DNA of 64,000 nt from an uncultured delta proteobacterium (GTDB taxonomy: Bacteria > Desulfobacterota > Binatia > UBA9968), in the NCBI GenBank assembly GCA_963840855.1, contig CAWJBB010000030.1, positions 128,001 to 192,000 of the forward strand, given 5' to 3'. The notes under the pieces are model-generated. The model saw only the letters and a program-made list of their open reading frames with translations, was not told the DNA's origin and made no database searches. The position numbers were made by a program, and so were the translations under genes. Shown piece after piece: positions 40,277 to 55,867 of this stretch (position 1 is the stretch's first letter; each line of letters starts with the position of its first letter).

Positions 40277-40580
40277 ATGAAACTATTCTTCTATCTCCGC
40301 CGGCTTCGGCAAAGTGCACGATGAGTCAAGAAAGCAAGTCAAAAAAGGGGACGATTTTTGGACCGCGGAATCTAAAAGTAGCCTGTTCCCATTTGCTATC
40401 CCTTGAGCTCCTACTACGGAAGCAGACGAGGCGGCTGCAAAAACGATAATGCTCGATAGCCACTTCAAATCGACCTTCTTCGCACAACGTCGCCTACATT
40501 ATCATGGCCCCGCATCTTTCGACCACAACCGTTCGAGGTGGATCCCAGGCACGGTGCGGCGCATGTTGCTATGGTCTGCG

Positions 40581-40677
40581 GCTCAACCCTTAACGCTAAC
40601 CTGCCGCCGACCGGGCAACGCGTGGCGGGACCCAAGAGCAACGCGCTTGGGCGGTCAGGTTGAGCGCCTCGTTAGAT
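40581..40677 (-). mobile_element. Integron attC-like recombination site
   Basis: Minus strand: ATCTAAC-GAGGC-GCTCAACC...GGTTAGC-GTTAAGG-GTTGAGC; extra C in L''; 7 bp after the stop of a minus-strand ORF. Confidence 0.65.
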
Positions 40678-40684
40678 TGCACCG

Positions 40685-41540
40685 TCATTGCGTTGGGGGC
40701 CTCGGGAGTTGAGAGTCCAATCCCCGGCGCGAATCATCGGATGGGACGCGGAACAAGCGCTGAGCATTTTTTAGGTGCGCGGTTGTTCGCAAGCTGAGCC
40801 AGTGCTCGCGAGTCCGGAAGAAGAGCTTACATGAAACCCAAACAAACGTGGCCTCCTGTGGCACCGAAGTGACGTAGCTGTGACGGAACGCTAGCTTAGG
40901 ATTGATGTACGCGGCGTTCGCGAAAAGCCGCTTGCTTCCAATTCGCGTATCTATGGAATTCGGAAAATGAAGCGGGTGATTTATACGCTCATCGCCATCG
41001 CGGATTTCATCCAAGGGCAGGAGATATCGAACGGACAGCTGAAAATCCTCGGTAGAATTGCCTAACCAGTCCTTTGTTCGAGAGAATTGTGGCCACCTCA
41101 ATCAGCCACTGGTGATCTTGGATTCCTGCGAAAGAGACTTCAGATGCTGAGTTCTGTGCTCGGTTCCGCCTCGCGTCGGACGAGAAACAGCCACGATGCC
41201 CATACCCCGAGGCTATCATCCCTAAAGCGGCTAGCAGGACTTGCCAGGTCAGCGAGTGCCATAGAATCAATCTAAGAGTACCTAGTTCTGTATAGTACGC
41301 CATATTCATTAGGCTCGCCTTGCTGTCACTTTGACCGTTTTTATAATGGAGGACGATTTGTAAAGCTTCTCTGATGACACAAGCCGACAAATGCTGAAAG
41401 TTGTTTCTGTATAGTTAGGCTCATCAGGGTTGTGATTCTGTTACCGAACCCAAGGCAAACGTATGGCAACTGGCAAGCTTAGAATACTCGACTCTACAAG
41501 AACGTCCGGACGGCTCGCTGCAAACGAACTCTTAACCATG
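40685..41540 (-). pseudogene. Degraded or frameshifted low-GC cassette-like ORF(s) of unknown function
   Basis: Overlapping fragments 40685-41101 and 41007-41390 ending at the attC-like site. Confidence 0.35.
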
Positions 41541-41576
41541 CAACCATTGGTCGGACCACGCTATATCTTATTTCTT

Positions 41577-41870
41577 TCAGGGTTTTTTCTCCCAGAGAAT
41601 AGTATTGTCCGGCTTTAGCGCGTCACTTTCGCTGACGAAATTACCCGCATAAGCTTCACTCTTTTCGCACAGCGTATACGTCCCGCCCACCGTGACTTGG
41701 TTTTGGTACCCGATCTTGCTCTTGACCTTTTTGACGCCAGCCAAACTGCCAACCGCGATCGCTTCCGACCAGTGATTCACTTGCACCGCCGTCTCGCCGG
41801 TAAGGCGCTTCTCCTAACCATTGGCGGTGTGCTTGCTGAAAGTCCCGGCGATACCACGAGCATCTATAGG
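41577..41870 (-). pseudogene. C-terminal relic of a REP-associated tyrosine (Y1) transposase
   Basis: HWSEAIAVGS...VKKVK...Y.L.E..EAY resembles the RAYT C-terminus. Confidence 0.55.
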
Positions 41871-42125
41871 GTTAGCGACTTCACGGGGGTCGGACCTGCG
41901 TGAGATCTTGATTCCTCAATGTAAGTTTGCAAAATAGGCGTTCTTGAAAGGCTTAGCCGTAGCTTTTTGGCGTTGAAATAGACGATCTAAGGCAAACAGA
42001 AAGCCCGTTCCAGCCGTTCCAAACGTTCCACCGCTTCGCTCCGTTCAAATCGTTTAAGAAATTGAGACTCGGCCAAGACTTTGAGGACGCAACGCCATTG
42101 AACCGCTCACTCTAAGAAATACGCG

Positions 42126-42200
42126 ATGCCGCACACCAACCGCCATTTTCTGCCTGGGCACGTCTGGCACATCACTCGGAATCTGCCTGTCATTTGCTTT
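42126..42200 (+). pseudogene. N-terminal relic of a REP-associated tyrosine transposase
   Basis: MPHTNRHFLPGHVWHITR (cf. MPRANRHFLPG.VWHITHR). Confidence 0.6.
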
Positions 42201-42427
42201 TAAAGAGGCGATGGAGAGTTTGTCACGTCAAAGACAAGCCGTTCTCAGATCAAACTGAAGGATAGCTAAAGCGGCGGTTCCTTGTTGCACTCCTGCGCCA
42301 AATTTGAAGGTGCGGGTGATTCACACCCGCCTCTGCATTCCGGGCATTGACATGGAGACAAACAGTGGTGAAATTTAAATAAAGCTCGCGGTGAGGCGTG
42401 CTTTAGACGAGCGGGAGGTTCAAATTG

Positions 42428-43116: not shown

Positions 43117-44349
43117 CTATCCGACCGCCCGCATCTCCTGCCGCTCAATCTCCGTACCCGCCGCCTTCCTGAAGTCCTCCTCCTTAAAGGAGTACAGTCC
43201 AGCGCCTCCAAGAAAGATCTTCGCAGCTATCTCTCTGGGCACGTTCTGAAGGAGGTTACTGGAGACGTTGGGAAAGTTGGAGTCGAAGTGGGGATAGTCC
43301 GTCGAAATACACATGTGATCGGCGCCAATGAGGCTCGCCGTGGACGCGATCTCGGGTTCGCTGCCCTCAACCCCAGCCCAGCAGTTGCGCTGAAAGTACT
43401 CCTTGGGTGTCAAGGACAGGTAGGGCGCATGGGAATCCCGGTAGTTCGCATAGTCCCACTCGATGCGGCTGAGCAACCCGGGGACCCATGAGTTCTGGGC
43501 CTCCAGGTAGCCCACCCGGAGCTTGGGGTGAAACTCGAAAACGCCGGAGATGATCTGAGCGATCAAAGCCTGCTGCATTTCGATCCAATGGCTGGCTACG
43601 TGGCGGTAAAACCGGTTCTCTCCGTAGAGCTCGTTCATGTGGGAGCTCCAGGCGCCTGTCCCCTCATGGAAGCACCAGGCGACGTCCAGTTCCTCATGAA
43701 GACTGTATAGGGGGTCCCAGTAGTTCGAATGCCAGTAGTGGCCGTTTAGCAGGTTAGGGCGAATAAACGAAGCCACGGCACCCAGCTCACGAACACACCG
43801 CACCAGTTCCTGGCATGCCAAGTTGACATCATGTAGAGGAAGCATGGCAGCGAATTTCAATTGGTTGGCACTGTACTGGCAAAACTCGTGGATCCAGTTG
43901 TTGTAGGCCTGGCTTAGGGCCAGGGAGAGTTGCGGATCCATTCCGTTGCGGGAGATGAGGCTGAGACCACCGGTGGGGAACAGGACAGCAATATCGATTC
44001 CCTCCATCTGCATCGCCATGATTTGGGCTTCGGCGTCGTAATCTCGTTCGATCGCGAAGCGCAACCGCCCTGTCGCAGCCGAGCGGGAGGCCGATAGCTG
44101 ACCCGTCGCACTCCCGAGAATAGGGCCACTGGCACGCGACGATGCGGGCTTTTTGCGGTATTGCTGCAACTCCACGTCCATGGAGGCGGGCAAACCATCG
44201 ATGATCCACGACCGGTGGCTTAGCTTCCCGTCCGCGCCTACTGCCGACGTGACCCGGGACTTGAAAGCCGGGTTCAGGTACTTCTCAAAAAGGTCCCCCG
44301 GCTCCTGAATATGCATGTCACTGTCTACGAACCTCAGTCCTTCTTTCAT
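43117..44349 (-). CDS. Amidohydrolase_2 family protein
   Basis: VDSDMHIQEP, AYNNW, FHEG, STDYPHFD. Confidence 0.88.
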   Translation of the reverse strand: MKEGLRFVDSDMHIQEPGDLFEKYLNPAFKSRVTSAVGADGKLSHRSWIIDGLPASMDVELQQYRKKPASSRASGPILGSATGQLSASRSAATGRLRFAIERDYDAEAQIMAMQMEGIDIAVLFPTGGLSLISRNGMDPQLSLALSQAYNNWIHEFCQYSANQLKFAAMLPLHDVNLACQELVRCVRELGAVASFIRPNLLNGHYWHSNYWDPLYSLHEELDVAWCFHEGTGAWSSHMNELYGENRFYRHVASHWIEMQQALIAQIISGVFEFHPKLRVGYLEAQNSWVPGLLSRIEWDYANYRDSHAPYLSLTPKEYFQRNCWAGVEGSEPEIASTASLIGADHMCISTDYPHFDSNFPNVSSNLLQNVPREIAAKIFLGGAGLYSFKEEDFRKAAGTEIERQEMRAVG

Positions 44350-44742: not shown

Positions 44743-45123
44743 TTACAATCTTTCAGCTCCATCGAGTTTTCCAAGATCTCGGTCAAAGGTACCCAAAGGT
44801 ACATGACCGGCCTTCAGAGCTACTTCGAGAATCAAACAATCGGAGAACCCCAGCGCGGGACGGTGGCGGTACTGCTCCAGCGCTGCCGCGACAGTATCGG
44901 ATTCTTGGATTGTGAGATCTTTGTGTTGCAAGAGCATATCGACGGCAGTCGCTATTTCTGGATGAGTGAGTTCGTAGACGGCCGCAAGGACCCGCGATGC
45001 CTCGACGAGGACGAGCGTCGATATCTACGCACCTTTGCTAATGAAGGCTTCCGCCGTAGCGACCTGCTTGCGGTCGTCACGCGTGATAAGGCAAACCAAC
45101 ACGTTGGTATCAACGGCGCGCAT
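44743..45123 (-). pseudogene. VapC/PIN toxin with in-frame TAG at 45025-45027
   Basis: MRAVDTNVLV.LITRDD..Q...AE.FI.KGA*IS.LVL.E...FSDCLILE.A......TFD. Confidence 0.85.
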
Positions 45124-45373
45124 GCTTCTCTTTCATATAGCGCCGCACGCCTCTTTCGAAGTCTTCCAGCTTCTTCGGGGTGGGGACACCTTTCGGAAAG
45201 ATCGCTCGGTGAATATCCTGCGACGAGTATCGGCCGGCCTTGCGAACAACAATCGCATCGCCCTCCTCATCCCACTCCAGAATCGAACCTGGCCCGATAC
45301 CGAGTTTTCGCCGCACCTCAGCGGGAACGGAAATTTGACCTTGAGCCGTAATCTTTGAATGTGCGATGGCCAT
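45110..45373 (-). CDS. AbrB/MazE family antitoxin
   Basis: SKITAQGQISVPAEVRRKLGI.PG. Confidence 0.9.
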   Translation of the reverse strand: MAIAHSKITAQGQISVPAEVRRKLGIGPGSILEWDEEGDAIVVRKAGRYSSQDIHRAIFPKGVPTPKKLEDFERGVRRYMKEKHARR

Positions 45374-45556: not shown

Positions 45557-46753
45557 TCATCGACCTTTTTTGTCCTTGGCCACCGCGCTCAAGCGCGGCA
45601 AGAACCTGATGGCGTTGTCGCTGAGCAGCTTGATCTTGGCGCTCTCCGGCATGGCTTTATCCCAGATGAGCGGCACTGCGTTGGGCCATGCGCTGCCGTG
45701 GTGCGGGTAGTCAGTCGAGAACAGCCAGGGGTGCTCGCCTAGGGTTTCGACAGCGTACGCTATGTGCTTTTCTTCAGCCTCAACCGAGCAGAAGAGGTTG
45801 CCATCCTTCAGGATTTCCGAGGCGGTACGTTTCAGCTTGGGGGTTTGTGGTGAGCCAGGCTTGTAGCCGTCGTCCAGCTTCTCGATCAGGTAGGGCATCC
45901 AACCACCGAAGCTCTCGAATAGGCCGATTCGGAGCTTCGGGAACAAATCGAAGACGCCGCCGCCGACCAGAGCCGCCAGCGCGTATTGTCCCCCGATGCT
46001 GTGGTAGAGGCCGTTGGGAGCTTCCACCCACGGGGTAAAAGGCGGCCGGTTCGCGCCGCCGTGAACCCACAATGGCATGTCGAGTCCTTGAGCGGCTGCG
46101 TATAGAGGATGGAGGTCCGGATTGTCGAGCATCCTGCCATCCGGGCAGGTACGTGGTATTTGCAGTCCGGCAAAGTGCGGGTCCTCCTTGGTCCAGAACT
46201 CCAACTGCGCGATGGTCTTCGGAACGTCCCGCATGGTGGAGGCCCCTATCCACCAAAGACGGCCGCCTGCATCAGCGCAATAGTTACTCATGAACCGGTG
46301 GAAGGCGTGGTGCAGGGCGCTCTCGAAGCCCACGTCGCGCAACGCGCAAAAGCTGTCAGCCGAGCTCGGGAAGATAACACTGATGTCGACCGCGGCGATT
46401 TCCATGTCTCGGAGGCGAATCGCTGGGTCCCAATTACAAGCGGGGTCTATCCGGACACCAGCATTCGTCGAAGCCCGATCGCCTTGGATGGCTTGCTCAG
46501 ACCGCGAGCTACCGTTCCCCTGAACCTCGTATGCCTCATAGACGCCTAAAGGGCGTGTTGGAAGGGCCGGCCAAAGAAACTCCGAGAAGCCACGTTCTCC
46601 CGCCCGGTGCTTAAGCGCATTCGCTGCTTCGCTAAACCGCCGGTACGTCTCCCGGTATTCCGGGGCCATATATTGTTTGTACGTCCGGTCTAGATCCCAG
46701 TACTGGCGGATGTGGGAATCCATGTCGATCACTACATGTCCGTTGTAGCTCAT
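45557..46753 (-). CDS. Amidohydrolase_2 family protein
   Basis: VIDMDSH, WVHG, FESFGGW, FSTDYPH; start MSYNGH at 46753. Confidence 0.85.
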   Translation of the reverse strand: MSYNGHVVIDMDSHIRQYWDLDRTYKQYMAPEYRETYRRFSEAANALKHRAGERGFSEFLWPALPTRPLGVYEAYEVQGNGSSRSEQAIQGDRASTNAGVRIDPACNWDPAIRLRDMEIAAVDISVIFPSSADSFCALRDVGFESALHHAFHRFMSNYCADAGGRLWWIGASTMRDVPKTIAQLEFWTKEDPHFAGLQIPRTCPDGRMLDNPDLHPLYAAAQGLDMPLWVHGGANRPPFTPWVEAPNGLYHSIGGQYALAALVGGGVFDLFPKLRIGLFESFGGWMPYLIEKLDDGYKPGSPQTPKLKRTASEILKDGNLFCSVEAEEKHIAYAVETLGEHPWLFSTDYPHHGSAWPNAVPLIWDKAMPESAKIKLLSDNAIRFLPRLSAVAKDKKGR

Positions 46754-46854
46754 TACTCGCCTCTCTGAGCGGTGCCTTGAAATAGGCCTCGCGATTTTCT
46801 TTTTAGGGCTACGGCCGAAGAAGTTAAAAAACTCTTTAAAAGGACAACCGCGGC

Positions 46855-47870
46855 TATTAAGGCCCATCACATCCCGATAAAGCTTAAAGTATGTTGTAGC
46901 GCTCATTTCAGGACGCACCGGGACAATCTTGAGGTTAGCTGGGATTTGCTTCAAGATTGGCGCTTCGAAATCTCTTCGGCCGGAATTGTATCCGATGCTA
47001 GCGAATTCTAGCTGGGTTTCTTTGGAGAGCATGAAGTCGATGTATAGCCTCGCCGCGTTCGGATGAGGGGCGCCTTTCAGAAGGGCCAGAACGAACTGCC
47101 GGCTTATCAGTGGTTCGACGGCAACTCAATCGACCGGAGACACCCGCCTATTTAGGAGTTCTATCCCGTGAACCAGGGAGATGGCGACAATCGACGCGTC
47201 TCCCGCGGCGAGCAGGGTTTGCATTTGCGAATGGCCACCGATGATTTTGACGTCCAATGCTGCGAGTTTTCGGAGGAAATCAAAGTTTTTTCTTCACCAC
47301 ACGCGCTGATGGCTGCAGCGATACACTTGCTTTCGTTTTCGTCATGAGAATCTTGCCCTTCCATTTCGGTGCAAGAAGATCAGAGAAGCTCTTGGGAACA
47401 TCTGCGCCTTTGACGAGATTCGTGTTATAGGCAATCACGTTCAGGGTCTCGGCGTTATCGCCCAAAATCCTTGTCATCCTATACTGTGGGCGAAACGCAG
47501 TCCTCTGCGGCGAATCATAGCTGTCTATCAAACCTTTTTTTAGGAGACCATAGAAATCCATTTCAGATTCGTGAATTACATCGGCCTTGGCGCTCTTGGC
47601 TTGGCCCTCGATTACAACTCGTTCGGCAAGCCGTTCCGAACCTAGCCGAATGACATTGACTTTTATGAATGGATACTTCCTAGTAAAAAGCTGGCTAATT
47701 TTTGCGATGTTGACAATTCCAGCGTGCCATAGAAAACAAGCTCGCCCTCTTTCTTGGCGGCTTCGACGACGGGCTGCGCCATCGTACTCGACAAGAGAAC
47801 CAAAAACAGACGCGAAAAGACTAACGGCTGTGAGAAAATTACGTAGTTTTTTCGGGGTCATTATTGGCAT
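46855..47870 (-). CDS. ABC solute-binding protein, multiply frameshifted
   Basis: KYPFIKVNVIRLGSE, NVIAYNTNLVK..VPKS..DLL.PKWKGK, APHPNAARLYIDFMLS fragments. Confidence 0.65.
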
Positions 47871-47889
47871 CTCCCTGCCCAGTGGTTCG

Positions 47890-49157
47890 CTAAACAGCCG
47901 CAAGACTGACGTTGAGACTAGGACCATGCCGTAAGAACTGCTCGACTTCGGTTTCTGTGAGGAAGCGCTTTTTACAGATCTCTTGGTAAAGTGCCTCGCG
48001 GATTTTCTCCATCTGCTCCGGCGAGGGCCGCAGTCCCATCGACTCCACTTTAAGATCCAAAACGTTGCCCCAGAAGGTACTGCTACCCCATACATAACGC
48101 TGCGTCTGCCCTACAACTTCGCCGACAAATGGCACATTAGCCTCGGGCAAACCCTCCTCTTCAGACTGCCCGACCTGAAGCATATGGGCAGCCGACTCCT
48201 CCAAAAAGGCGTTCTCTCCCGTGATAGCCTTGTTACGTTGGCAGACGACGCCGGTGACTTTTTCAGCAAATTTAGACAAAGCATAGAGTTTCTCGAGGTT
48301 GAGACCGGTGTCAACGCCGAAAAGAATCTGCAGCGAGGCGGCCACCTCTTCGAGGGAAGCATTTCCCGCCCGATCGCCCAGTCCGTTGATCGCTACTTCA
48401 CACCAATCGGCGCCGGCCTCGACCGCGGCCAAAGTGTTGGCTGTAGCAAGACAAAATCATTGTGGCAGTGGATCGAGAGGGATGCTCGCTCGCCGACTTC
48501 CTTCTTGAGCTCTTGCACGAAATATTTAACCGTAGTCGGAAAACGCTTCCCCGGCTGTCGTAGATATGGAGGTGGCTGGCACCGGCCTGGGCCGCTTCGC
48601 CGTACATCTTCTTGACAGTGTCCAGATTGGTTCGCGTTGCTTTGGACCAACCGAAAGCAACTTCTCTAGCTCTTTCACAGGCGTAAGGCACGGCCGCATC
48701 GATAGTTTTGTGGATCTCGTCTTTCGATATCCCTTCCTTAAAGTCTGAGAAGATCTCCATCGGTGAAAAGGAAAAATGAAGGTCAAGATATCGGCGTCTA
48801 CTTTCAACGCCGGTCGATATCCTTTTTCCAATCGCCCCGCAACTTAGCGCTAAAATATGCGAGCTTCGTCTTGACGCCTGCGCGGCGTAATTTTTTGACG
48901 AGTTCCGCGACCGCCTCGGTGGAGTGTAGCTTTGGGAGCTCAATCGCGCCAACTCCCAACTCGTCAAGTTTCAATGCCAGTTCTGTCCGCGCATCGGGAG
49001 AAATGATCGCCCCGACGGTCTCCTCGCCTTCCCGCATCGTGACATCGCGCAGAAAGACCTTCTTGGGGAGGCCAGCCATTTGGGCGCGCACCGGCGTTTC
49101 CCAGTTGAGAGGTGAGGTATACCACTTTCCCGGTACATACCATGGTTTTGATTCCAT
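47890..49157 (-). CDS. DRE-TIM metallolyase (homocitrate/isopropylmalate synthase-like), frameshifted
   Basis: RDVTMREGEET, IHCHND, AINGLGDRAGNASLEE, KAITGENAF. Confidence 0.8.
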
Positions 49158-49167
49158 ATTACCCCCT

Positions 49168-49744
49168 GAAAGTTTGATACTGAATGAGATCGCTCCTAAA
49201 TCGGCACTACTAAGTCTCTTAGGAATGCGGCCGGCATCAACTTCCATCTTTAGCAGCGGGACCATGCCGCCTGCTTCCAGTTTCCTTAGGATGAACGACG
49301 GCATGGGTTCGAACTGCAGTTCAACGCTGGATGAAATGTTGGTCAGGCATCCTTTTTCGAGATCAACCTCGAGCTCATCGCCTTGTTTAACCGCATACAG
49401 AATCCCGGAATAGTTCCACCACCGGCAGCCCGCGTTCTATCGAATTCTCAAGAAATATGGAGCCGATGTATCGCATATCACCGCAGCCACACCCGCCCCA
49501 AAATGGATAAACAGGCGTGATCGTGATCATGCCCAAAGCCCATGAACTCGCCGACGATGAAATCCCCTTTCTGGACCTTCTTCGGAAAATCGGGATCTAC
49601 TTTGGTCATGCAGTACTTACCGATCTCCTCCGGCGTATACATGCCTTTGGCCTGCAGCTCGTGAGAAATATCAAATACACATATTTCCCAATCGACATCC
49701 AAAACACCGCGAAATACCCAGGCCTTTCCTCTCATCGGCTTCAT
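49168..49744 (-). CDS. LeuD-like aconitase small (swivel) subunit, divergent, frameshifted
   Basis: GKAWVF, DPDFPKKVQKGDFIV, GFGHDHDHA, GDELEVDL, ILRKLEAGG. Confidence 0.75.
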
Positions 49745-49765
49745 GTCTCACCCTGCAATCTTCGC

Positions 49766-51029
49766 TCACAGATATTTTCTGGGATCCGTGATCTTGCCCT
49801 CCAGGCACGAGGCGGCTACGGTCATTGGGTTAGCTAAATAGATTTGCGCTTCTTGGCTGCCCATGCGCCCAGGATAGTTCGTTTGACCCGACCGCAATAC
49901 ACACTTCGTCGGCCGATAAAGGCGTGTTCGCGCCCCATTCCATACCCTCGTTGGGTGTGGGCACGACACACTCAGCGTCTACGAAGGTGTTTATCAACCC
50001 CTCATCTAAAGCTTGGCGAAGTATTCTTGTCGTACCTGGGGTGATGTTAAGCACACGCGCGGATGAATCTTCTTGCCTTTCAAAATCCGCGCGGCCATGC
50101 GCAAATGTTCTATCCAGCTGGCGGCGTCGCTACCGATGAATCCCCGGTTGATGGGCGTTCCTTCCAACTCCTTGATCGGTTTTACCAGATGGCGCTTTGG
50201 TGGGGGCACGACTTGAGGCTCCAAATTCCCGATATCGAACTCAAAAACCTTTGCATACTGCGCATCCGGATCGCTGCGCTGGGGTTCGAATGGCTCGATA
50301 GTCCGCGCGCGCACGTAGTCGAGAGTCTTTTGTCGGGGTTGATGATCGCGGTCCAGGCACCGGTAAAAATGGCGAAGGAGCAGAGCGAAAACGCTCTCCC
50401 ATACTTAAGGCGTCAATCACCGGTCCCGTCCATTCGAGCGCAGCGCCGCCGGCCCCGGTCGGTCCGATCTGAGATAAGAAATATTCAAATAAATCGCGCG
50501 CGCAAGTCCCGGGAGGGAATTCCCCTTTGACGACAATCTTGATACTCCGAGGAACTCTCATCCAGGTTTTACCAGTTATGAAATATTCCCCGCGTCCATA
50601 GGAAAGAGTGGTGGCGAAGGCGCCTAGTGCGCCGCTACCGCTCGAGTGCCCGTTGACCGCCTGTAAGTAAACCTCCCCGGGTAGCGCCAAGCTCTTTCAG
50701 CGGAAAACATGTTTTCAATGCCGGACCGGCCGAGAGTGTAAATGTTCTCGTCGGGGATGCCGACCGCCTTGGCCCATTTGCGCGCGCCCATGCGAGACCG
50801 CGCGGCATTGTGCGAGCTGTCGCACCGAGGTGACCGTCGACGATTCTGATGAGCTTTGGATTAAAAACGCCAACTTCCCATTCCACGCAGAACTCCACAC
50901 CACCCCGTAAGCCACCAAAATTTCCCATCGGCGTTGGACATCGGCTGCCGACTTCGACGTAGTCACCGGTGAAACGTCTTTGCGGCCGGCAGCTTTAGCG
51001 AGAATTTTTTCGGTAATCGTTTTTCCCAT
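49766..51029 (-). CDS. LeuC-like aconitase large subunit lacking Fe-S cysteines, frameshifted
   Basis: MGKTITEKILAKA, GALGAFAT, WMRVP.SIK, SDPDAQY, FIGSD, PNEGME, NYPGRMG, YLANP..VAAS..G.ITDPR. Confidence 0.8.
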
Positions 51030-51303: not shown

Positions 51304-51624
51304 CTAAAAGACCCCCGTGTCGATCAGCGAAAATATGACCTCCTTCAACGCCGGGTCGATGGTGTCGAGGCGGTCTACTGTGGGGCCGCCGGCCAATGAA
51401 TTGAGAATATCGGGCAAGTCCTCTTTTTTTACGCCCGCGTACCAAACTTTTTGCGGGTGAACCACAATATTGGGACCAGAGTCGCAGCCGCCAAAACAGA
51501 TATACGGTTTCACGTCGACGTCGATTGATCTATCGGCGACCTGGGTGGTGATTTCCTTCAGCAGCTCTTCAGAGCCGCGGCTCAGACAGTCGACGTTTTG
51601 GCACACGAAGCAGGTTTGTTTCAT
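51304..51624 (-). CDS. Thioredoxin-like [2Fe-2S] ferredoxin
   Basis: CQNVDC...CFGGC..GPN.VV.P..VWY. Confidence 0.85.
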   Translation of the reverse strand: MKQTCFVCQNVDCLSRGSEELLKEITTQVADRSIDVDVKPYICFGGCDSGPNIVVHPQKVWYAGVKKEDLPDILNSLAGGPTVDRLDTIDPALKEVIFSLIDTGVF

Positions 51625-54586: not shown

Positions 54587-55867
54587 ATGCCGCTGACTTT
54601 GGCGAATCACCCCGTCACGAAGATCGACTTCGGAACTCCGACCCGACTCGATGGGACGGTGCTGGTTATCGATCGTGAGGAACTTCGCCGGCTGGTGCTC
54701 GACGACCGTTCTTTTACAGGCGTCGATTTTCAGATCATCGGCGCCGGCGATAAGTGCCGCGCCGGGCCGATCTTCGACATCGTCGAACCAAGAGCGAAAG
54801 CTCCCGGTTCAGGCGCCGATTTTCCCGGCATCTTGGGTCCGCCCGTAACCGCTGGAGCGGGGACGACCCATGTGCTCAACGGAGCGGCGCTCACAGTTTT
54901 GTCGGAGAGACTGCCGGGAGCGGAGCGAAGCGAAACCGGCCGCCTGCTGGAAATGACCGGCGCGGCGGGGGATGCGAGCGATTACTCCTCGCTAAGACAT
55001 CTGGTGATGATTCCGCACACGCAATCGGCATTGCCGTGGCCGGCGATGCTGAAAGCGTATCGCATCGCGAGCCTGAAAGTCTCCGTACACCTGGCTCGCG
55101 CGGCGCTGAATCACCCCCCGGTATCCGTGCAGACCTTCGATGCTGTTGGCCCCGTGGAGCCGGGACGCGAGGGGCTTTTCCGCGTCGCCTACGTCGGCCA
55201 GATTTTTTCGCGCCAGCGCAAACCCGAGGTGGATGAACCGATTCTCTATGGCGCCAACACGGACGGAATGTTGCCCATGGTTCTCCACCCCGACGAATGG
55301 CTCGACGGCGCGATCGTTCCGTCGTTCCATTCCTGGATGGGCAACACCGACACTTACTTCTATCAGAATCATCCTGTCGTCTTGGACCTTTACCGCCGCC
55401 ACCAGGCGCGAGAGCTTAATTTCGTCGGGACGGTGGTGACAATCGCGGGGGCCAACCATTTTGACCGCGAGCGTAACTGTCGAGTGGCGGCGCATCTGGT
55501 GAAGTGGAATCTGCGGGCCGATGGCGCGGTTCTGACCAAGTATGGTGGCGGATTGCCCCACGCGGACCTGGCGGAAACGGCGCGGCTGTTGGAAGTCACG
55601 GGAATCCGAACCGCAGTCATGGTTACTGACACGTCCCGAGACCGTCGGGTGGAGTCGGCATTGCTTTTTAACACGCCGGAAGTGAATGCCATTGTTTACA
55701 ACGGTGGCAACGGCACCCGATGGGAAGTTCCAATGGTGGATCGGATCATCGCGCCGACCCCCGAGTTGCGTGAATTGCTCGCCGGTCCATTAGTTGTCGC
55801 AGCGTCGGACATCGCCGGCGTTACGAATCAGCAAGGGGCATCAAAAATGAGAGCAATGGTCTATTGA
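54587..55867 (+). CDS. Glycine/sarcosine/betaine reductase component B alpha/beta (GrdE-like) protein, divergent
   Basis: DIVEPRAK...FPG.LG, G.THVL.G, LHPDEWLDGA, TY.YQNHP, L.ADGA; adjacent to a GrdB-like gene. Confidence 0.8.
   Translation: MPLTLANHPVTKIDFGTPTRLDGTVLVIDREELRRLVLDDRSFTGVDFQIIGAGDKCRAGPIFDIVEPRAKAPGSGADFPGILGPPVTAGAGTTHVLNGAALTVLSERLPGAERSETGRLLEMTGAAGDASDYSSLRHLVMIPHTQSALPWPAMLKAYRIASLKVSVHLARAALNHPPVSVQTFDAVGPVEPGREGLFRVAYVGQIFSRQRKPEVDEPILYGANTDGMLPMVLHPDEWLDGAIVPSFHSWMGNTDTYFYQNHPVVLDLYRRHQARELNFVGTVVTIAGANHFDRERNCRVAAHLVKWNLRADGAVLTKYGGGLPHADLAETARLLEVTGIRTAVMVTDTSRDRRVESALLFNTPEVNAIVYNGGNGTRWEVPMVDRIIAPTPELRELLAGPLVVAASDIAGVTNQQGASKMRAMVY

Follow-up and report, generated by a model that had tools for sequence, protein, structure and literature searches.

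The main finding of this study is that a LeuC/LeuD-like gene pair, encoded on the minus strand of a 64,000-nucleotide stretch of DNA from an uncultured delta proteobacterium (the window, by which we mean the whole stretch), belongs to a widespread clade of aconitase-type proteins in which the three cysteine ligands of the [4Fe-4S] cluster, present in every characterised aconitase, isopropylmalate isomerase and homoaconitase, are replaced by Asp, Glu and Glu (D/E/E). As judged from alignments, trees and substitution rates, this replacement is coordinated, passed on by inheritance and kept under selection, and it arose from Cys-bearing ancestors. The pair belongs to an operon of four genes at 46856-51029—encoding LeuC-like, LeuD-like, isopropylmalate synthase (IPMS)-like DRE-TIM and solute-binding proteins—all on the minus strand. 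The large-subunit gene (49766..51029, minus strand), recognised from open reading frame (ORF) pieces and Pfam Aconitase matches, reads GSDAASW at 50114-50134, where base-by-base reading places the Asp codon GAC (50126..50128, minus strand) at the first [4Fe-4S] Cys position, turning GSC into GSD. It reads TPNEGMEWG at 49932-49958, where ExxE (GAG GGT ATG GAA, 49938..49949, minus strand) takes the place of the CxxC cluster ligands, the two Glu codons being GAG at 49947-49949 and GAA at 49938-49940. The same subunit carries VNGHSS at 50640-50657 and GQTNYPG at 49868-49888, both on the minus strand, and the LeuD-like small-subunit gene (49205..49744, minus strand) carries GFGHDHDHA, with HDHDH at 49517-49531. 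An earlier note on this DNA had pointed out these motifs, and all of them were found, on the minus strand, when checked base by base. What it understated is that the assembly leaves these genes without continuous reading frames, the large subunit being spread over at least five ORF pieces.

Intact versions of the same proteins exist in the same genome and well beyond it. A paralogue on another contig (C59) has the same motifs at 83% nucleotide identity over 1.9 kb and encodes a large subunit of 422 residues (P0001) and a small subunit of 179 residues (P0002). When P0001 was searched against a collection of 5.8 billion proteins, 3052 matches at E 1e-5 were obtained among 8000 scored, and the best 120 were full-length, with 52-94% identity. 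In the alignment of P0001 with these 120 matches (n = 121), position 303 is D in 74 proteins, C in 46 and E in 1; position 363 is E in 74, C in 46 and T in 1; position 366 is E in 74, C in 46 and a gap in 1; and the three ligand columns always change together. A FastTree phylogeny of 141 rows (117 of the 121 proteins, four shorter than 400 aa having been removed, together with 21 locus translations and three canonical LeuC/aconitase outgroups) implies a single state change, since the 83 D/E/E rows group with two derived E/T/gap rows in one clade (support 99), nested within a grade of Cys-bearing proteins. The split does not hinge on the columns that define it: with the ten discriminating columns removed, IQ-TREE still separated 33 non-Cys from 31 Cys rows in a set of 64, with an SH-aLRT support of 99.8. 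At the codon level, the ligands in D/E/E loci vary synonymously (GAC/GAT, GAG/GAA) while the residues are fixed, and Cys loci use TGC/TGT. The earlier note had proposed looking for intact homologues and measuring the ratio of nonsynonymous to synonymous substitution (dN/dS); the former make up 74 of the 121 aligned proteins and one well-supported clade, and the latter is 0.03-0.07, which denotes purifying selection. Because intact, selected D/E/E homologues exist, the replacement is not decay, and random decay is ruled out as the source of the motifs.

A profile search of 1.84 billion representatives confined the whole family to two clusters (692 and 552 bits), the next match scoring 427. When the query was set beside 150 representatives at 50% identity, 143 of these 151 aconitase-type large subunits proved to be C/C/C and six to be odd singletons or fragments, D/E/E being confined to the query and the representative of its own cluster; this is a pattern beyond chance and in line with the claim of the earlier note that the ligand motifs are near-invariant. 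The ESM Atlas returned generic aconitase and LeuC clusters only. One further form deserves mention: a long-branched pair within the non-Cys clade, L020 1464-2717 and protein P0116, has Glu/Thr/gap at the ligand positions, and its small-subunit gene in L020 lies 3.6 kb off, so this form may be further degenerated or repurposed. As to the paralogue, the C59 pair (C59:31657-36222; L001 5658-10223) is located between an Hsp20 gene and a gene for a 699-residue serine recombinase, in a locus without DRE-TIM and binding-protein genes; with an estimated bin contamination of 8.3%, the two copies might come from two strains rather than from one cell.

Comparison of the D/E/E clade with its Cys-bearing sisters distinguishes what switched with the ligands from what was there before. 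Separation between the two groups is near-perfect not only at the ligands (Asp versus Cys at 303, Glu versus Cys at 363 and 366) but also at positions 107 (Asn in the D/E/E clade versus His in the Cys group), 108 (Met versus Val), 307 (Trp versus Arg), 384 (Gln versus Thr) and 385 (Thr versus Cys), and two extra residues are inserted at 38-39 in the D/E/E clade. After AAVLCE, the small subunit continues with (A/S)PYF in 15/15 D/E/E loci and with an NxNF-like stretch in 7/7 Cys entries. Common to both groups are NGH, loss of the first NRNF arginine, loss of the small-subunit FAR arginine, and G(F/Y)GHDHD(H/Q/T/N), with minor variants of the latter in three entries (GHDHFH, GHDNDH and GHDHEH). 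H67, H129, D180, R214, D234, D255, R281, N386 and R390 are kept in both. Since GHDHDH, NGH and the NRNF arginine loss also occur in the Cys-bearing sisters, they predate the change of the cofactor site and lie outside the switch. The coordinated package put forward by the earlier note is therefore narrower than it supposed: it holds for the three ligands and a second shell (H107N, R307W, T384Q, C385T and NxNF to APYF), and does not extend to GHDHDH, NGH or the NRNF arginine. Other cysteines do not make up a replacement set in the D/E/E clade: Cys218, 356, 379 and 410 are conserved there but also occur in the Cys group or the Methanocaldococcus jannaschii enzyme. On these comparisons, the whole family is an uncharacterised, atypical LeuCD-like lineage, and the ligand switch is a later event within it.

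Membership of the aconitase superfamily itself is evident from both sequence and the three-domain fold. Profile searches matched the M. jannaschii isopropylmalate isomerase with E 8e-108 for the large subunit (4KP1/4NQY) and E 3e-34 for the small subunit (3VBA); P0001 scores 162.4 bits against Pfam PF00330 (Aconitase; gathering threshold 28.7), the window pieces reach 43.5 and 31.6 bits, and the predicted AlphaFold2 (AF2) model, with a pLDDT of 86, superposes on 4KP1 with a TM-score of 0.91 at 34% identity. This M. jannaschii enzyme (LeuCD, MJ0499/MJ1277), an isopropylmalate/citramalate isomerase, shares the two-subunit aconitase-family architecture and the fold. It differs in having GSC...CxxC, DSH, NRNF, GSSREHA and FAR, where our family has NGH, (Q/T)xNY and GHDHDHA and the D/E/E clade has Asp/Glu/Glu. 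The profile alignment places D, E and E on the GSC and CxxC cysteines, as the earlier note had held for all three [4Fe-4S] ligands, and also puts NGH on DSH, (Q/T)xNY on NRNF and GHDHDHA on GSSREHA, which together with direct reading bears out the changes it had described from DSHT to NGHS, from STTNRNF to GQTNY and from GSSREHA to GHDHDHA in the small subunit. The three Cys ligands by which a [4Fe-4S] hydro-lyase is recognised are thus absent from the window copy, P0001 and 74 of the 121 aligned proteins, and the small-subunit Ser/Arg (GSSREHA) and Asp-Ser-His are absent from them and likewise from the Cys-bearing sisters. The NCBIfam models for archaeal-type HacA/LeuC score below their cut-offs (PRK00402, 320.2 vs 385; TIGR01343, 309.9 vs 385.7; TIGR02086, 278.7 vs 410.2). 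The small subunit falls below that of TIGR02087, named 'LeuD/DmdB family' (100.3 vs 108.95), and has no Pfam match (Aconitase_C) at E 0.01, its homology being clear via 3VBA. We assign proteins to the D/E/E clade by Asp303/Glu363/Glu366, by Asn107, Trp307, Gln384 and Thr385, and by placement within the clade; D/E/E, GQTNY and Trp307 (from GSDAASW) are read in the window, Asn107 is read in P0001, and P0001 falls within the clade.

What the altered site does is a separate question. We put at an even chance the proposal that the D/E/E protein is a hydro-lyase in which a metal site with carboxylate ligands has taken over from the [4Fe-4S] site. The heterodimer would still be a hydro-lyase or isomerase, acting on an imported organic acid, and the three carboxylates would bind one divalent metal (Mg, Mn or Fe(II)) that replaces the unique iron of the cluster and acts as the Lewis acid for the substrate hydroxyl and carboxylate. 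Three-carboxylate Mg sites play such a role in enolase-superfamily dehydratases. More tentatively, and with a probability that we set just short of even, the D/E/E clade would be the first branch of the classical aconitases to have swapped its [4Fe-4S] cluster in place for a carboxylate-ligated non-Fe-S centre, which may even be binuclear, aided by the His/Asp-rich HDHDH loop of the family, giving an oxidant-proof, iron-sparing hydro-lyase that spread horizontally among aerobic soil and groundwater bacteria (Binatia, Burkholderiales and Actinomycetota). Several points weigh against these proposals. Confidence in the AF2 model is lowest at the ExxE loop (pLDDT ~62, residues 361-370). The whole family lacks the catalytic Ser of aconitase and three of its four arginines for substrate binding, which we take to be the equivalents of R447, R580 and R644 in aconitase numbering, so that the reaction may not be a classical dehydration at all. 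In addition, the three carboxylates could bind a cationic group of the substrate or act as acid/base residues.

That last point leads to the explanation that survives best beside a metal site, namely a metal-free site in a cofactor-free enzyme, whose carboxylates would either contact a positive group (amine or guanidinium) on a novel substrate or act in general acid/base catalysis; we regard it as unlikely. The loss of most carboxylate-binding arginines and the gain of His/Asp-rich loops fit a substrate unlike citrate or isopropylmalate. The PGA_cap (CapA-like) genes beside the D/E/E pair in four loci (L007, L010, L011 and L014; directly upstream in three of the four), which in NCBIfam weakly resemble the lasso-peptide Trp epimerase MslH, hint at amino-acid-derived substrates. 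There is reportedly also a precedent in a colourless, cofactor-independent two-subunit maleate hydratase, said to have been purified in 1993 from Pseudomonas pseudoalcaligenes. However, these His/Asp loops and arginine losses are found in the Cys sisters too, which makes a change of substrate class at the switch improbable, and the changes hit exactly the three ligand positions, all to metal-binding carboxylates.

We give still less credence to a pseudoenzyme, in which catalysis would be lost and the heterodimer would be a binding, sensing or regulatory protein, as in the cluster-free regulatory precedent of the animal iron regulatory proteins. Loss of the cluster ligands along with the catalytic Ser and Arg would agree with it, as would the patchy accessory spread (3/40 relatives of the window's genome, and 1/121 genomes of one actinomycete genus), but purifying selection is strong, the active-site His, Asp and Arg residues are invariant in both groups, the two subunits are always kept together, and the neighbours are catabolic enzymes and transport receptors, not regulators. 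Finally, that an Fe-S cluster is still bound via carboxylates seems scarcely credible: single Asp or Glu ligands to [4Fe-4S] clusters occur in other proteins, and Cys218, Cys356, Cys379 and Cys410 remain conserved, but these four are also present in the Cys group or the M. jannaschii enzyme and offer no new ligand set, His107, next to the cluster in the Cys group, is lost as well, and we know of no cluster without any cysteine ligand.

The carboxylate-ligated metal site that we propose would set the clade apart from the systems already described. Aconitase-type dehydratases are textbook Fe-S Lewis acids and are especially prone to oxidative damage. Mitochondrial aconitase and aconitase B belong to the same superfamily and share the fold (E 1e-31, TM-score ~0.8). 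They are, by contrast, single-chain enzymes, in which three Cys bind a [4Fe-4S] cluster and the catalytic Ser and all four substrate arginines are present. According to one report (PMC8184944), cluster and substrate sites are 'completely conserved' in aconitase enzymes other than aconitase X (AcnX), and AcnX—cis-3-hydroxy-L-proline and mevalonate-5-phosphate dehydratases—provides the known case of a changed cluster site in the superfamily, with a [2Fe-2S] or [3Fe-4S] cluster. In AcnX, however, an Fe-S cluster is still bound, at other positions, and the similarity is only distant (TM-score 0.45-0.57). The class I (Fe-S) and class II (iron-free) fumarases, as presented in PMC6831887, are a pair in which an oxidant-sensitive hydro-lyase has an oxidant-resistant counterpart, but they have unrelated folds, whereas here the change would sit inside one fold and at the same three positions. 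As for possible reactions, M. jannaschii LeuCD has maleate hydratase activity, according to PMC8307300. Among the closest known proteins are the Cys-bearing sisters (annotated 'aconitase family protein' or '3-isopropylmalate dehydratase large subunit', mostly from Chloroflexota metagenome-assembled genomes, MAGs), which are 52-64% identical to the D/E/E proteins and share with them NGH, GHDHDH, the arginine losses, an adjacent small subunit and solute receptors. They are unlike them in having C/C/C, His107, Arg307 and Cys385, and often a second LeuD-like gene and a lyase of the isocitrate lyase (ICL)/phosphoenolpyruvate (PEP)-mutase type. The sister loci in turn recall the nicotinate fermentation of Eubacterium barkeri, which is said to employ a 2,3-dimethylmalate dehydratase, DmdAB, reportedly an oxygen-labile iron enzyme, and a dimethylmalate lyase; the likeness lies in the combination of a LeuCD-like hydratase with an ICL/PEP-mutase-family lyase. 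In the full-text literature, subscription journals being outside its scope, we found no description of a Cys-less LeuCD/aconitase-family enzyme, and for DmdA it gave papers on the dimethylsulfoniopropionate (DMSP) demethylase only. The D/E/E clade and its Cys sister, at such close identity, make a natural before/after pair for a swap of a cluster for another cofactor with the fold unchanged. Recognising it would correct routine annotation as '3-isopropylmalate dehydratase', and the proposal is directly testable since one D/E/E member is in a cultured Micromonospora isolate.

The copy in the window requires a judgement of its own, because it is broken as assembled. Relative to the intact orthologous operon L008, to which it is 78% identical at the nucleotide level, 46856-51029 shows 17 one-base deletions and two one-base insertions, besides a few gaps of 2-4 bases: six deletions and one insertion in the large-subunit gene, two deletions and one insertion in the small-subunit gene, five deletions in the DRE-TIM gene, and at least four deletions plus these longer gaps in the binding-protein gene. 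We think it probable, with considerable confidence, that these roughly 19 one-base indels are consensus errors of a poorly covered segment and not gene decay, because nearly all breaks are of one base, nearly all are deletions, and there is no trace of relaxed substitution. Read in the frame of L008, the four operon genes have dN/dS values of 0.041, 0.033, 0.034 and 0.071 against it, similar values (0.035, 0.066 and 0.031) being obtained for the intact pair L003 and L008. Their dN (0.055, 0.090 and 0.049) shows no excess over intact comparators (0.053, 0.085 and 0.060), and the three enzyme genes contain no in-frame stop in ~1000 codons. After frame correction, the window copy is 90-91% identical to P0001 and L008, the large subunit having 90% amino-acid identity to P0001 with dN/dS 0.04-0.07. 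Contigs of four public metagenome runs, each from a different study and 88-99% alike, were also aligned to the region. Among the 12 rows listed of 53 indel rows, the relatives' contigs add a base at 47280, 47470, 47786 and 48451 in 4/4 runs, at 47343 and 47456 in 3/4, and at 50054 in 3/3 runs covering the site, and they lack the extra base at 49413 in 3/4. Other copies in the window's genome and its relatives are all open. A database locus from a Binatia MAG (L007 6233-7499) has a large subunit with one frameshift near the 5' end, and straight translation of this match of 1267 bases gives 12 stops.

Two points temper the reading as consensus errors. The best share of the region's words in any public run was 0.21, the indels being checked on contigs of relatives, and the block of indels ends exactly at the operon borders, with the flanking Amidohydro_2 and ferredoxin genes intact, a pattern also compatible with the operon having decayed as one. 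In that event it would be a true, very recently inactivated pseudogene block, which may have turned redundant after the gain of the second copy on C59, beside the large serine recombinase. The contamination estimate of the bin and the finding that 5 of 96 Amidohydro_2 paralogue loci of the same genome are also split over frames lean the same way. This is a minority possibility in our estimation, since C59 has no second copy of the DRE-TIM and binding-protein genes and relatives from four studies are intact at the indel sites, in addition to the one-base character of almost all events (17/19 deletions), the unraised dN and the lack of nonsense codons. The split Amidohydro_2 loci can be illustrated by C41:48746-49817, over three frames; the genome has ~96 loci of this family and very many SBP_bac_1/6/8 paralogues. 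A genome-wide scan for broken blocks by low long-ORF cover proved insensitive, as chance ORFs on the opposite strand fill the operon region, which scored 0.53.

The distribution of the family suggests mobility. D/E/E loci were found in Candidatus Binatia and 'deltaproteobacterial' MAGs, in Betaproteobacteria/Burkholderiales MAGs, in a MAG labelled Streptomycetaceae, in an Actinomycetota MAG and in the cultured isolate Micromonospora sp. NPDC051196, and Cys loci in Chloroflexota, Betaproteobacteria and one 'deltaproteobacterial' MAG. Close homologues occur in three of the 40 relatives of the window's genome (two D/E/E, one C/C/C, none with a stop). Of the 121 genomes of the actinomycete genus to which L016 belongs, one has the gene, which is hence not a genus trait. 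To judge by this spread, the D/E/E pair is accessory and horizontally mobile. A split between aerobic and anaerobic hosts, considered as support for O2 tolerance, is a hint only, as Betaproteobacteria and the family of the window's genome each include both types. Every locus examined has the small-subunit gene next to the large-subunit gene. Neighbours in D/E/E loci include TctC, SBP_bac_1/6 or NMT1 receptors, MmgE/PrpD, Amidohydro_2 and cupins, with DUF4286/EthD-like genes in three (L011, L012 and L014), while those in Cys loci are ICL/PEP-mutase-type lyases (4/7 loci), SBP_bac_5 ABC systems, TctC, family III CoA-transferases and PrpD. These neighbourhoods point to catabolism of organic (polycarboxylic) acids, and the solute receptors (TctC, SBP_bac_1/6, NMT1) are consistent with the imported substrate suggested by the earlier note. 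A second LeuD-like gene occurs in five Cys loci (L009 7847-8371, L015 9888-10415, L017 6424-6960, L022 9842-10390 and L021 6732-7837), without GHDHDH in four of them, both copies in L021 being of the GHDH type; D/E/E loci have one small-subunit gene of the family each, L010 holding a distant canonical-type one besides.

The DRE-TIM gene downstream of the pair (47890..49157, minus strand) encodes an IPMS/citramalate-synthase-like, HMGL-like TIM barrel (178 bits) with REGEE at 49020-49034 and HCHND. Its best NCBIfam matches are IPMS subfamilies, with a score of 279 against a cut-off of 517 for the IPMS family. Compared with isopropylmalate, citramalate and homocitrate synthases, it keeps the HMGL-like barrel and the HxH metal ligands, an invariant pair. 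It has REGEE in place of RDGxQ, Glu in place of the His of HESGIH, and no LeuA_dimer domain, which is lacking in its 13 closest relatives. Claisen-condensing DRE-TIM synthases have an Arg-Asp...His-x-His metal site and use a Glu/His pair for the enolisation of acetyl-CoA. REGEE instead of RDGEQ, which the earlier note had counted among the coordinated changes, is indeed present. It is, however, a trait of the protein's own IPMS-like clade and lies outside the switch: all 12 closest relatives covering the motif (69-94% identity) have it, as do seven of the nine next (36-47% identity; the other two have KEGEE and REGLE), and Glu replaces the Asp of RDGxQ in 36 of 102 more distant homologues. Only the window and two of the 14 D/E/E loci examined (L003 and L008) have this gene after the pair, so that a conserved pathway including this enzyme, as the earlier note envisaged, is not shown. 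From these comparisons the DRE-TIM gene is a separate oddity and does not speak for a shared cofactor theme.

The remaining genes of the region are more ordinary. Five minus-strand genes span 51029-45557, according to the ORF list and Pfam, the four operon genes being followed by an Amidohydro_2 gene; Pfam thus agrees with the earlier note that a solute-binding protein and an amidohydrolase come after the DRE-TIM gene. The gene for the extracytoplasmic solute-binding protein (SBP_bac_1/6/8; 46856..47861, minus strand) is without its stop, which fuses its tail to the following ORF: the ORF listed from 47032 starts with this tail, ahead of the true start of the intact Amidohydro_2 gene (45557..46753, minus strand) at 46753. 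A second intact Amidohydro_2 gene, identified by Pfam, is at 43117..44349 (minus strand), and an intact gene for a thioredoxin-like [2Fe-2S] ferredoxin (51304..51624, minus strand; Pfam) marks the upstream limit of the broken block. An Rfam scan found no leader RNA, and counts of promoter and terminator sites were not above those in shuffled sequences. Between the two Amidohydro_2 genes lie, at 44743-45373 on the minus strand, a gene for a MazE/AbrB-type antitoxin and, after it, an ORF of 64 residues. The match of this ORF to a PIN domain is confined to the C-terminal half of the domain, and it looks like a truncated or frameshifted VapC-like toxin. At 40300-42400, ~2 kb have no ORF longer than 140 aa and no Pfam or Rfam match, and were flagged in the low long-ORF-cover scan beside 22 other regions. 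Finally, a 426-residue protein encoded at 54587-55867 (plus strand) matches component B of glycine/sarcosine/betaine reductase (Pfam Gly_reductase, 228 bits), and its gene adjoins an SBP_bac_5 gene, unusual company for such a genome.

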